A stretch of 6,739 nucleotides of DNA, from NCBI RefSeq assembly GCF_003334255.1, contig NZ_QOWU01000099.1; one strand, given 5' to 3'. How positions within the stretch are numbered: the first letter of the stretch is position 1; the number at the start of each line of letters is the position of its first letter. The stretch is from Escherichia coli. Its GTDB lineage: Bacteria; Pseudomonadota; Gammaproteobacteria; Enterobacterales; Enterobacteriaceae. The notes beneath the pieces were generated by a model that was not told where the DNA came from, made no database searches, and saw only the letters and a program-made list of their open reading frames with translations. The position numbers and the translations under genes are program-made. Below are positions 1-5,196 of the stretch, piece by piece.

Positions 1-56
1 GAGAGCGGTTTTTCAATTGCCTCAATGGCATCAGACGGATTCATACATGTATTCCC

Positions 57-100
57 GGTGAAAAAAGACAAAACCCCGCGCACCGGAAAGGTGGCGGGGG
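57..100 (-). terminator. Rho-independent terminator, minus strand
   Basis: GC-rich hairpin: 74-79 pairs with 94-99 and 81-84 pairs with 90-93, with one bulged G at 80 and a 5-nt loop GGAAA. On the minus strand it is followed by TTTTGTCTTTTTT (reverse complement of 61-73). The plus strand has no T-tract after the stem, so it is unidirectional. Confidence 0.5.
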
Positions 101-163
101 ATTCACGGAGATAATATCTGTCTGAAATTGTTTTGAATCGATGGGATTGTTGCGTATTAACAT

Positions 164-1273: not shown

Positions 1274-2758
1274 ATGTCATTCGGTCAGCCTTGTGATGAG
1301 TTTCCCCTGAGTTCGCTGCCTCCACTCATTCGTGATGCCGTTATTGAAGCTCAGCAAATTACGCAGGCTCCCCTTGGGCTTGTGGCAGCGTCTGTCCTGG
1401 GCGCTGTTTCACTTGTCTGCCAGAATCTGATTGATGTCTGCAGACTGAATACACTGCGGGGGCCGGTCTCTCTTTTTTTCCTGACGCTTGCCGAGTCCGG
1501 AGAACGAAAAACCGCAGTGGACAAATTATTAATGAAGCCCCTGTACCAGCAGGAGATGCAGTTATATTCCAGATACAAAAGTGAACTGGCTGTCTGGAAA
1601 AACAAGGAAGAGCTTTTAAAGGCTCAGAAAAAAGCATTGTTGTCAAAACTGAATAAAGAACTCCGCAAAGGCGCGGATGAGTCAGAAACCCTCAGACAAC
1701 TGGAAGTACTTCAGAAAAACAGTGCGGAAGAACCTGTGAGGTATAAATTCATTTTTAATGATGCCACGACTGCGGCAATTAAGAATCAGCTTTGTGGTAA
1801 ATGGCGTTCAGTGGGTATTATGTCAGATGAAGCCGGTATTATATTTGATGGATATACCCTGTCTGAGTTGCCTTTTATTAACAAAATGTGGGATGGCTCT
1901 GTATTGTCGGTGGACAGAAAGAATGAACCCGAACAGATGATTGAAAATGCCAGAATGACGTTATCCCTCATGGTGCAACCCGGTCTTTTTGACCGATATA
2001 TGGAGCGAAAAGGTTCTGTTGCCAGGGACAGTGGTTTTCTTGCCCGTTGTCTTATCAGTAAACCTGCAACCACGCAGGGGAAACGCTTTATTAACGGAGC
2101 TGTGATTCCGGGAGGATCATTAACGGCATTTCATGAACGATTAATGGAACTGGCCAGAGGCAGTATTGAAAAATCCAGTGAGGATGAACGGTATTGTCTG
2201 CATTTTTCGCCTGAAGCGCAAAAAATATTTATTGAGCACTATAATGTTCTGGAGCAGGATTTATCCCCTTCCGGACCCTTAAGCCCGTTTCGGGGACATG
2301 TTTCAAAAAAAACAGAAAACATTGCAAGAATTGCAGCGTTATTTCAGTATTTCAGCTATGGTGAAGGGAAAATCTCTGCCGATATCATGACGTCTGCTGT
2401 CGTAATAAGTTCGTGGTACACAGATGAATATAAAAAATTATTTGCGTTACCTGATGAATCTGAACTGCAGCAGAAGGACGCCGAGGAGCTGTTCGACTGG
2501 CTCATTGAGGAGTGCCGCGGAGAATGCCCGCCCCGTGTCAGGAAAAATTATATTCTCCAGTGTGGCCCGGGCCGGTTCAGAAACAGGAAAAAACTGAACG
2601 CATTGCTGAACATTCTTGAATCTCAGTTCAGGCTTTCTGTCGTGCCGGAAGGAAAAACCATGTATGTTCTGCTTCCCCAGATAGCCAGTTTAAAGTTGTC
2701 TGATGTCTCAGGTATTTTTACCTCGGGTTATCACTACAATAAGCTGAGAGCGAAGTAA
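1274..2758 (+). CDS. yfjI: DUF3987 / YfjI-family protein, 494 aa
   Basis: Longest ORF in the window (track 1205..2758, which begins at TTG). I place the start at ATG 1274 because GAGG at 1265-1268 sits 5 nt upstream. The N-terminus (FPLSSLPPLIRDAVIEAQQITQAPLGLVAASVLGAVSLV ... LTLAESGERKTAV) matches the pattern I recall for DUF3987/YfjI proteins, including the SGERK[ST] motif. Family call is from memory, not a search; the symbol is family-level, not a claim of orthology. Confidence 0.8.
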   Translation: MSFGQPCDEFPLSSLPPLIRDAVIEAQQITQAPLGLVAASVLGAVSLVCQNLIDVCRLNTLRGPVSLFFLTLAESGERKTAVDKLLMKPLYQQEMQLYSRYKSELAVWKNKEELLKAQKKALLSKLNKELRKGADESETLRQLEVLQKNSAEEPVRYKFIFNDATTAAIKNQLCGKWRSVGIMSDEAGIIFDGYTLSELPFINKMWDGSVLSVDRKNEPEQMIENARMTLSLMVQPGLFDRYMERKGSVARDSGFLARCLISKPATTQGKRFINGAVIPGGSLTAFHERLMELARGSIEKSSEDERYCLHFSPEAQKIFIEHYNVLEQDLSPSGPLSPFRGHVSKKTENIARIAALFQYFSYGEGKISADIMTSAVVISSWYTDEYKKLFALPDESELQQKDAEELFDWLIEECRGECPPRVRKNYILQCGPGRFRNRKKLNALLNILESQFRLSVVPEGKTMYVLLPQIASLKLSDVSGIFTSGYHYNKLRAK

Positions 2759-2817
2759 CCGGTGAGCAGTTTTTCTCCATTATGCTTCAGACTTAGATGA
2801 TTGATTATTATGGGGAT

Positions 2818-2857
2818 TTCATCACCGATATTCAGATGTATGAATATCGGTGATGAA
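2818..2857. repeat. 17-bp perfect inverted repeat with 6-bp spacer (TTCATCACCGATATTCA-GATGTA-TGAATATCGGTGATGAA)
   Basis: 2818-2834 is the exact reverse complement of 2841-2857; the spacer is 2835-2840. It lies between the convergent 3' ends of the yfjI-like gene (stop 2758) and the 197-aa gene (stop 3096). The stem is AT-rich and no T-tract follows on either strand, so it is not a classic intrinsic terminator. Confidence 0.9.
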
Positions 2858-3095
2858 CTAAAGCTCAGGAGCTGCGTGGTGGTGATGAATCAACAGGCAT
2901 ATAACTGATACCCGCCGGTCAGAAGTTCCAGCCTGCGACTTTCCTGTCTGCGTGCCCGCAGTCCGGCGTTCAGGTGCAGCGTGTGACAGAACGCACGGAG
3001 AGCGAAACGGCAGGCAGACAGGCCGTTCAGTCAGCCCTGGCACCCTGCCCGGATACCAGCTTCCCTGAAACAACTGGCATCAGGTGCGCTTATCG

Positions 3096-3769: not shown

Positions 3770-3976
3770 TTACGGACGGGACTGTGCAATACGCGCCTGC
3801 AGCCAGGCTTCCACTTCGCTTTTCAGCCATCGGGAGCTGCGGCCCAGCTTGATGGGCGCAGGAAAGTCACCATCCTTGATGAGTTTGTAAAACCACTTAT
3901 CGGTCAGGCCGGTCAGTTGAGTGATAAATGCCATGTCGACCATCTGGTCATCCATCAGTGAAACTGGGGTGATCAT
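3770..3976 (-). CDS. alpA: AlpA-family phage-type transcriptional regulator (excisionase-like DNA-binding protein), 68 aa
   Basis: Track ORF 3770..4048 (-), trimmed to the internal ATG at 3976, which is preceded by GGAGG (reverse complement of 3986-3990) with a 9-nt spacer. The sequence FITQLTGLTDKWFYKLIKDGDFPAPIKLGRSSRWLKSEVEAWLQARI matches the AlpA family pattern (TGL...W.Y.LI..G.FP.PIKLG.R...W...EVE.WL) and the size is typical. Confidence 0.8.
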   Translation of the reverse strand: MITPVSLMDDQMVDMAFITQLTGLTDKWFYKLIKDGDFPAPIKLGRSSRWLKSEVEAWLQARIAQSRP

Positions 3977-4265: not shown

Positions 4266-5196
4266 GGCAGCCCGTGCCTTGTGGGCAGGGACAGGTATCA
4301 CTGGTGGGATAAGGCTGTCTGATTGGTATTATAAATATAAGAAGTTATCAGAGAGTAACGTAAAGGATTTGCCAGAATAACCTAAGAGAGTAAATCTCTC
4401 CGGTAACAGAGCGCTGTGAAGCATTCTGTATCAGAGTGCAAATACATGAACGCTGATGCGTAAAATCAGCAGTGACACGCCAGCTCCCCCTGTGCCCATT
4501 CCTGTATAAGACATGAACTGAGCGTATTAATGCTCCTGCCCTGAGACTGAGCCGGTGAGTGAGGGGCTGAGAAATCCCTCTTGACACTGCTCTAAACCAG
4601 AAATACTTCCCCGGTTGTTGCGGTGCGTCCGGATCCCCGATAACGGAACACTAAGGCTGTATTGCGGGACACCAGGTAAGTGGCAGCCCGTAATACGTCA
4701 GGAGACGCGGGAAAAGTGAATTCCCACACGCGTTATAAACTTACCCTAGCGGAGCTGGAAGCCTTTAACTCTGCCGTTGACAACCGGCTGGCAGAACTAA
4801 CCATGAACAAACTTTACGATCGCGTTCCGGCTTCTGTCCGGAAATATGTCACCTGAACGTTCGGTAATCACAGCGGTATTGCGCCAGGTGTTATCTGCTC
4901 TGTGTGATTCTTTTTAGGGTTTCTCAGATTGTTAAAAGCTGAATATGTTCCTGTTGTCGGGAACCAGGATAATACAGGGAACATTAAGCGGTATAGCGAC
5001 AACAAAGCATTCGAAATCAAAAGGGAATGGTGTACGGAGTTGTGGGCAGTAATGGGCCGATTTTCGGGCATTACCGATCTCTGTTGAGGTTTTCTCGTAT
5101 TTGCCGGGGATCCGGTGCGTTACTGTCTGGCACAGCAAACGCAGAGGTGGCGGGGCGCTCTGCTCCGCTGATTCCGGATAATCCCTCCCCTGTAAC

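Follow-up and report, generated by a model that had tools for sequence, protein, structure and literature searches.

The hairpin on the minus strand near the left end of the window (the whole stretch of 6,739 nucleotides of Escherichia coli DNA that was analysed) is probably a promoter-proximal and intercistronic intrinsic terminator, which would block read-through from upstream and attenuate transcription of the GTPase gene that starts just beyond it. It forms part of a conserved cassette of about 100 nt, which would be the control unit preceding YeeP/YfjP/YkfA-family GTPase genes in CP4-57-type genomic islands. On the minus strand, the proposed order of the cassette is a sigma-70 promoter, a transcription start near G104 or A103, the hairpin (99..74), the U-tract (73..61), a weak Shine-Dalgarno (SD) sequence and the ATG at 44. 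The features, with the evidence for each, are the following:

1..44, minus strand: 5' end of the GTPase coding sequence, start ATG at 44..42 (RefSeq, translation, YfjP/YkfA alignment and 80 homologous loci)
52..56, minus strand: weak SD-like GGGAA, 7 nt before the ATG (sequence)
54..62, minus strand: 3' arm of a possible outer helix (UUCAC.GGG), pairing with 110..102 (MFE fold)
61..73, minus strand: U-tract UUUUGUCUUUUUU (sequence and relatives)
74..99, minus strand: predicted terminator hairpin, 5'-CCCCGCCACC-UUUCC-GGUG(C)GCGGGG-3' (sequence, folding, relatives and covariation)
102..104, minus strand: predicted transcription start region, G104 or A103, 7-8 nt after the -10 and inside an invariant TGAA (spacing)
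102..110, minus strand: 5' arm of the possible outer helix (CUC.GUGAA), overlapping the discriminator and the start site (MFE fold)
111..137, minus strand: putative sigma-70 promoter, with -35-like TTCAAA (137..132), spacer ACAATTTCAGACAGA (131..117, 15 bp) and -10 TATTAT (116..111)

Hairpin and U-tract in the window

The sequence-only reading had claimed a minus-strand hairpin followed by a U-tract, and this was borne out by the sequence, the folding energy and 78 of 80 homologous leaders. The hairpin at 99..74 consists of ten pairs, nine of them G-C, with one bulged C and a loop of 5 nt, and the U-tract abuts the stem. Its folding energy was -18.5 kcal/mol on its own. The 61-nt stretch 110..50 folded with -24.4 kcal/mol, corresponding to z = -3.1 against dinucleotide shuffles, of which one in 200 was as good. 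In the plus-strand reading, GAUUCACGG comes after the hairpin in place of a U-tract, indicating a one-directional terminator. The polymerase reads a G+C-rich stem as a terminator when 8-9 U follow directly within 10 nt. The traits of an intrinsic terminator were found together: a G+C-rich stem, a short loop, a U-tract on one strand and compensatory change. A generic terminator scan listed 8 sites in the window when 7.2 were expected by chance, and at this position it scored only a sub-hairpin of 5 pairs. Since such a consensus scan is uninformative, the case for a terminator rests on the comparison with relatives.

The gene downstream of the hairpin

In a 99.9%-identical locus (L001), the RefSeq annotation of the minus strand has a 'GTPase family protein' of 290 aa, whose coding sequence begins at ATG 44..42 and is translated as MNPSDAIEAIEKPL... 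The distance between the U-tract and this ATG is 17 nt. Aligned with YfjP and YkfA of E. coli K-12, N-terminus included, the protein was 51-59% identical. By sequence similarity it is a TRAFAC-type small GTPase of the YeeP/YfjP/YkfA family, with weak similarity to LeoBC/LeoA. According to the L001 annotation, agn43 comes after the GTPase gene and a plus-strand YfjI-family gene at 1274 is the next one on the right, which places the hairpin 5' of the GTPase gene, in a 1.2-kb divergent intergenic region. The first 1300 bases of the window matched more than 4000 E. coli genomes, and RefSeq puts the minus-strand GTPase at the left end of the window in thousands of them.

It had been suggested that the hairpin insulates a minus-strand gene beginning to the left. 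Such a gene exists, and this was the closest of the three options offered; the element is not simply an insulator, since a conserved box lies upstream of it in the same module. The ATG at 31..29 that had been named as the gene start belongs to another frame, the actual start being ATG 44..42 as judged from RefSeq and the translation. A further option was a plus-strand gene reaching in from the left in frame 1 (stop at 112-114), whose 3' end would contain the hairpin. The frame is indeed open from 1 to 114, but the sequence leftward is the annotated and conserved N-terminus of the minus-strand GTPase, which refutes it; the annotation in thousands of genomes, the translation, the alignment with YfjP and YkfA and the 80 loci, in which homologues begin at the same distance from the hairpin, rule out a plus-strand coding sequence at 1-114. 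Moreover, the variation of the hairpin preserves pairing and not a reading frame. The probability left to this option is practically negligible.

The K-12 paralogues carry a strong GAGGAG where the window has GGGAA. In this weak variant (window 45-60, minus strand) the segment after the terminator was unlike that of all other genera (compared with L006, 7690-7710).

Differences were also observed in the surrounding island content. In another E. coli locus (L002), a dynamin-family protein follows the GTPase gene instead of Ag43 (1-1954 and 2172-3044, both minus strand), and the GTPase and dynamin-family proteins gave weak matches to the LeoBC and LeoA models of the Eleos defence system. The remainder of the island segment in L001 (12697-12876, about 4697-4876 of the window, and 13623-14192 and beyond) is of the decayed kind typical of CP4-type islands: it includes a truncated hha gene, a YagK/YfjJ-like gene of the 'inovirus Gp2 family' and zinc-ribbon genes, of which one is interrupted by an internal stop.

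Conservation of the cassette among relatives

A scan with one genome per species gave 80 loci from about 30 enterobacterial genera (Enterobacterales). The box, hairpin, U-tract and ATG were kept in the same order in 78 of the 80 GTPase leaders. A hairpin of -10 kcal/mol or lower, followed by at least 6 U in 10 nt, was likewise found in 78 of the 80, as against 4 of 320 shuffled leaders. The exceptions were L085, with no U-tract, and L087, whose stem has decayed.

The hairpin sequence itself was highly variable (72 distinct sequences among the 80 leaders). The two arms of one hairpin folded with a mean of -15.9 kcal/mol, while chimeric hairpins with arms swapped between loci reached only -7.6 kcal/mol. 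Two groups of leaders can be told apart: in the short-leader group, to which the window belongs, the stem begins 11-12 nt after the -10, versus about 20 nt in the long-leader group of K-12. With 35 long-leader sequences aligned by MAFFT and no fitting, pairing held in 91% of the cells, 8 of 12 pairs changed on both sides and none of 500 shuffles reached the score. A covariance model made from this group matched the copy in the window (46-133, minus strand) with 32.7 bits. When 60 sequences were aligned by fitting to the covariance model, pairing was 91% and 11 of 12 pairs had double changes, compared with 31-49% pairing for slid controls. RNAalifold on the plain MAFFT alignment of short leaders was left out, the stems being mis-registered. 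Among the relatives, the distance from stem to ATG was constant at 26-30 nt.

Within E. coli, the homology of the different copies to the window ended at about 133-142 regardless of what lies beyond, which may be an R-M system, IS remnants, a group II intron or a co-directional gene. When five E. coli contexts were aligned, AATAATTTCAGACAGATATTAT...GTGAAT, the hairpin and the U-tract were all conserved, even where the coding region was only 78% identical. In that copy, a compensatory change of CCACC/GGTG to CCTCC/GGAG was observed in the stem. The layout at K-12 yfjP and ykfA also matches, with TTGAAAAAATCTTCAGATAGATATCAT, a quite different stem (AACGGCAGAACC/GGTTCTGCCGTT), a U-tract, GAGGAG and the ATG.

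Among 5426 complete E. coli genomes, 4271 had the leader, the median being 2 copies. The cassette was rare on plasmids and the GTPase was absent from phage records, so the cassette is regarded as an island feature. In L054, a second and degenerate leader was observed at 491-590, after the end of a gene described below as X and about 900 nt upstream of the intact leader. It keeps the hairpin and U-tract, its box has decayed, and it is followed by the first codons of a truncated GTPase gene; it looks like the relic of an insertion.

The conserved box as a putative promoter

About 10 nt upstream of the hairpin, a near-invariant box was found at 137..111 on the minus strand, with the layout TTCAAA-15 bp-TATTAT. 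This box is best read as a putative sigma-70 promoter of the cassette. Its core TTTCAGACAGATATTAT was unchanged across the five E. coli contexts, including the one whose coding region is only 78% identical, and 63 of 88 loci contained a single exact match to TTCAGAYAKATATYAT. When loci were aligned in pairs, about 95% of the 2330 alignments stopped at the box, 88-110 nt upstream of the ATG, indicating that the conserved module begins there. Column conservation extended from the -35 position (TTnnAA) through the near-invariant 15-bp spacer and TATYAT to the TGAA 6-9 nt past the -10. At the predicted start, this TGAA was at least 90% conserved. The 22-nt box averaged 83% identity to that of the window, and the proteins were 47-62% identical.

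Binding data are available for the K-12 copies. By Genomic SELEX, with a resolution of a few hundred bp, RpoD holoenzyme was found to bind in the perR-ykfA and rnlB-yfjP spacers, and in both of them the authors predicted the promoter TTGAAA-15-TATCAT (Shimada et al. 2014, PMC3946193). This cassette is the only thing that the two spacers have in common. The start sites predicted for yfjP and ykfA would lie at about 2767642/3 (plus strand) and 269027/8 (minus strand) of K-12.

The putative promoter departs from the consensus in the window by its short spacer of 15 bp and by a -35 matching at 4 of 6 positions. The local promoter scan, which takes spacers of 16-18 bp only, did not list it. Compared by eye, the box resembled no Fur, LexA, CRP or PhoB site. 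A second copy, as a mark of a regulon, was found neither in the window, nor in any locus, nor in the K-12 intA-alpA region. The RNA predicted from 104 begins with GAAU and enters the hairpin, so that in the window about 4-5 nt separate the predicted start from the stem. The fold of 104..30 was the terminator alone, with no competing structure.

The upstream side

In 25 of the 76 genome loci, and also in E. coli L002, the box is preceded by a co-directional gene, here called X (310-410 aa), whose end falls within the -35 part or adjoins it. Examples are L002 3128-4279 (minus strand), L047 245-1396, L074 163-1392, L061 428-1399, L034 481-1413 and L085 326-1414, among others. The gene is very divergent and occurs with every leader type; probably, X, box, hairpin and GTPase constitute an old arrangement. 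Conserved motifs of the protein, of which WP_000514100.1 is an example, are W.K.D.RA, PFSW.D and ATFD.W. No match to X was obtained in Pfam, NCBIfam or PADLOC, and the C-terminal 45 residues or so are ribbon-helix-helix-like, of the DNA-binding type, with weak CopG/RHH matches. The conservation of the box was equal with and without an adjacent X.

In the window, a 1.1-kb AT-rich stretch (143-1273, G+C 0.32-0.45) lies between the cassette and the YfjI-family gene. A remnant of X was searched for by tblastn at 140-1270 and none was matched. RefSeq annotates nothing in this stretch in 19 of the 20 best-matching genomes, and the remaining one has a minus-strand hypothetical protein of 100 aa at about 371-673. 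In the window, X is replaced by unrelated AT-rich DNA, and for that reason the terminator looks orphaned there. The statement that the 1.1 kb to the right has no convincing minus-strand coding sequence thus agrees with both the annotation and the tblastn result. That no gene feeds into the hairpin holds within the window and does not hold for the family, since X feeds into it in about one third of the loci. A non-coding transcript from the AT-rich region, proposed as the source, found no support: there was neither an Rfam match nor an excess of promoters.

Proposed role and alternative explanations

In the mechanism that we favour, promoter-proximal and intercistronic termination, the hairpin would have two roles. 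It would stop polymerases arriving from upstream, either from gene X or from variable cargo, and it would act as a promoter-proximal attenuator of GTPase transcription. Any GTPase transcript would have to pass the hairpin, which is placed about 5 nt past the predicted start site, with 17 nt between its U-tract and the ATG. Most transcripts would end as RNAs of about 40 nt, and only the polymerases that read through would make GTPase mRNA. The ATG side of this position is observed; for the start-site side, we infer it from the predicted promoter, the conservation and the SELEX binding. The start site itself, termination in vivo and its efficiency are likewise predictions. Neither an alternative antiterminator fold nor a leader peptide or ligand domain was found, 104..30 folding as the terminator only and no riboswitch or leader of Rfam being matched. 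A promoter placed directly before an efficient terminator, with no sensor, would be odd unless some factor modulates the read-through.

Three explanations would give the hairpin another meaning. It may be a relic, namely the 3' terminator of the upstream gene (X or cargo), which was carried along with the GTPase module and has no role in GTPase expression; the latter would then come from a start site downstream of the hairpin or from rare read-through. Where a co-directional gene lies upstream (L002 and 25 genome loci), 30-60 nt separate its end from the hairpin, as is usual between a gene and its own terminator, and the window lacks that gene. This reading is doubtful, given that hairpin and U-tract are kept, with compensatory changes, in about 50 X-less loci of many genera. 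Furthermore, only 26-30 nt separate the stem from the ATG, with no conserved -10 or -35 in between, and the promoter-like box is found upstream of the hairpin, not downstream. The stem may also not terminate in practice and could guard the GTPase mRNA from 5'-end-dependent decay, the U-rich stretch being an S1-bound translation enhancer. Both ompA-type stabilisation by a 5' stem-loop and enhancers bound by ribosomal protein S1 are established in E. coli. The stem of short leaders does start about 4-5 nt from the predicted 5' end, and the SD in this group is weak, so that an enhancer would help. However, in long leaders (K-12 yfjP and ykfA) some 14-17 nt lie between the predicted start and the stem, a distance at which it could not serve as a 5' stabiliser, and stem and adjoining U-tract are kept there just as strictly although the SD is strong; in addition, a stem of this kind next to 8-9 U in 10 nt reads as a terminator. 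We therefore consider stabilisation highly improbable. Still less credit can be given to an independent gene for a trans-acting small RNA, in which the box would be the promoter of an RNA of about 40-60 nt with its own terminator and the GTPase would merely lie downstream. Promoter and terminator with a U-tail have the form of an Hfq-type small RNA, and in long leaders about 17 nt at the 5' end are single-stranded. Nevertheless, in leaders of the short group, the window included, unpaired RNA amounts to about 4 nt and a conserved seed is lacking, the hairpin is free to change in sequence, and the cassette is always fused to the GTPase ATG at 26-30 nt. No Rfam family was matched and no ncRNA is annotated in K-12, which makes this a very remote chance.

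The remaining alternative refines attenuation by the hairpin. It proposes processive antitermination of the lambda Q or Pseudomonas AlpA type, where an island protein would load at the spacer TTTCAGAYAGA and allow the polymerase to pass the terminator; when the factor is lacking, only the short RNA would be made. PalpB-tB is built in the same way (PMC7969949): a binding element occupies the space that separates -35 from -10, and the first ORF is immediately preceded by an intrinsic terminator. The promoter spacer is better conserved than the coding sequence, and an ordinary promoter needs none of that. The 4 nt or so between predicted start and stem leave no space for an RNA sensor or an antiterminator fold. 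As for the factor, a gene at 3770-3976 of the window, which is oriented like the GTPase gene (minus strand), codes for an HTH protein of 68 aa that is AlpA-like, with 23% identity to K-12 AlpA (pairwise E = 3e-5) and a sub-threshold match to an excisionase domain; X, which is often adjacent, has the ribbon-helix-helix-like DNA-binding tail. On the other hand, this AlpA-like protein is only a candidate, nothing ties its gene to the box, and the conservation of the box is independent of the adjacency of X. K-12 intA is a known AlpA-responsive gene, and no second copy of the box was found near it, in the window or in any locus. No convincing sigma-dependent pause element was seen, and the box is unrelated to the Pseudomonas motif GGGACGN5GGTA (PMC7969949). 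Antitermination is unlikely on this evidence, although more probable than the other alternatives.

Possible outer helix

The SD region after the U-tract was found to be complementary to the discriminator and start region and, in several lineages, over 11-17 bp to the box and promoter spacer. Complementarity of one or the other kind was noted in L011, L016, L021, L023, L042, L050 and L077, at about 1405-1500. The cassette is an imperfect palindrome, and the covariance model matched some leaders on the reverse strand too. The outer helix appeared in the MFE folds of many leaders and was strong in some lineages. In a fixed register, 70% of the cells paired, with little covariation. The shuffle z averaged -1.7, the asymmetry between sense and antisense was marginal (p = 0.047) and the link with the presence of X was not significant (p = 0.08). 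Because the 5' arm overlaps the discriminator and the start site, it would be largely absent from transcripts of the box promoter. One idea, by analogy, is that fold-back masks the SD in read-through transcripts, as both arms would be present only in transcripts from upstream.

Fold-back inhibition of read-through transcripts is well established for IS10 and IS50. As in those elements, sequence upstream of the own start is complementary to the ribosome-binding region, over 11-17 bp in L011, L016, L021 and L042 and 8 bp in the window. In contrast to the cassette, the IS elements have no terminator at that position, and the support in the cassette is uneven.

Box, hairpin and SD-complementary arm could also be viewed together as one undescribed cassette that gates a CP4-57-type island module (GTPase, Ag43/YfjQ and downstream genes). 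Polymerase started at the box would be licensed at the spacer by the AlpA-like protein or by the RHH-tailed X, whereas polymerase from upstream would be terminated, and any mRNA that leaked through would have its ribosome-binding site folded away. This combined scheme is speculative, and we consider it rather unlikely as a whole.

Comparison with known systems

Intercistronic attenuators are known to set expression ratios, as in the case of the rplL-rpoB attenuator, rpsU-dnaG T1 and the toxI-toxN terminator of a type III toxin-antitoxin system. When X is present, the cassette resembles them in having a terminator between two co-directional genes that travel together. It differs by the promoter-like box between the upstream stop and the terminator, and by its persistence after loss of the upstream gene.

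With lambda PR'-tR' and Q, and with P. aeruginosa PalpB-tB and AlpA, the cassette shares a constitutive-looking sigma-70 promoter, an element between -35 and -10, a leader terminator before the first ORF of a mobile-element module and the lack of an RNA sensor (PMC7969949). In contrast, its box is unlike the Q or AlpA elements, no sigma-dependent pause signal was recognised, and its terminator, known here from sequence alone, is far closer to the start (about +5 to +44).

The 5'-UTR premature-termination RNAs described for E. coli by Adams et al. (2021, PMC7815308) resemble the RNA predicted here, being short and ending before an ORF at an intrinsic terminator. The short-leader group of the cassette differs from them by having almost no unpaired RNA. 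No 3' end was present for the K-12 yfjP and ykfA leaders in the accessible portion of the Term-seq tables of that study, a weak negative because prophage genes may be silent and RNAs of about 40-60 nt are easily lost (PMC7815308). The Cappable-seq supplements contained nothing for these leaders, and no ncRNA is annotated at them in K-12.

The whole window was searched against Rfam 15 with E up to 1 and gave no match. A full-text literature search with six leader sequences retrieved no paper, and in the literature on yfjP, ykfA and yeeP only the SELEX paper (PMC3946193) was relevant. The cassette seems to be previously undescribed; as a leader or intercistronic terminator, it seems ordinary in form and unusually well conserved.

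Implications

For annotation, the case shows that a terminator which seems orphaned may belong to the gene that follows, as its 5' control element, and need not mark where a missing gene ended. The YeeP/YfjP/YkfA GTPase genes mark the edge of a conserved module in very common enterobacterial islands. This module includes Ag43 and toxin-antitoxin genes, and how it is switched on is poorly understood. The copies at yfjP and ykfA offer a simple experimental handle in K-12. With its roughly 100 nt conserved more strongly than the protein encoded downstream, the cassette points to an unstudied regulatory step in these islands.
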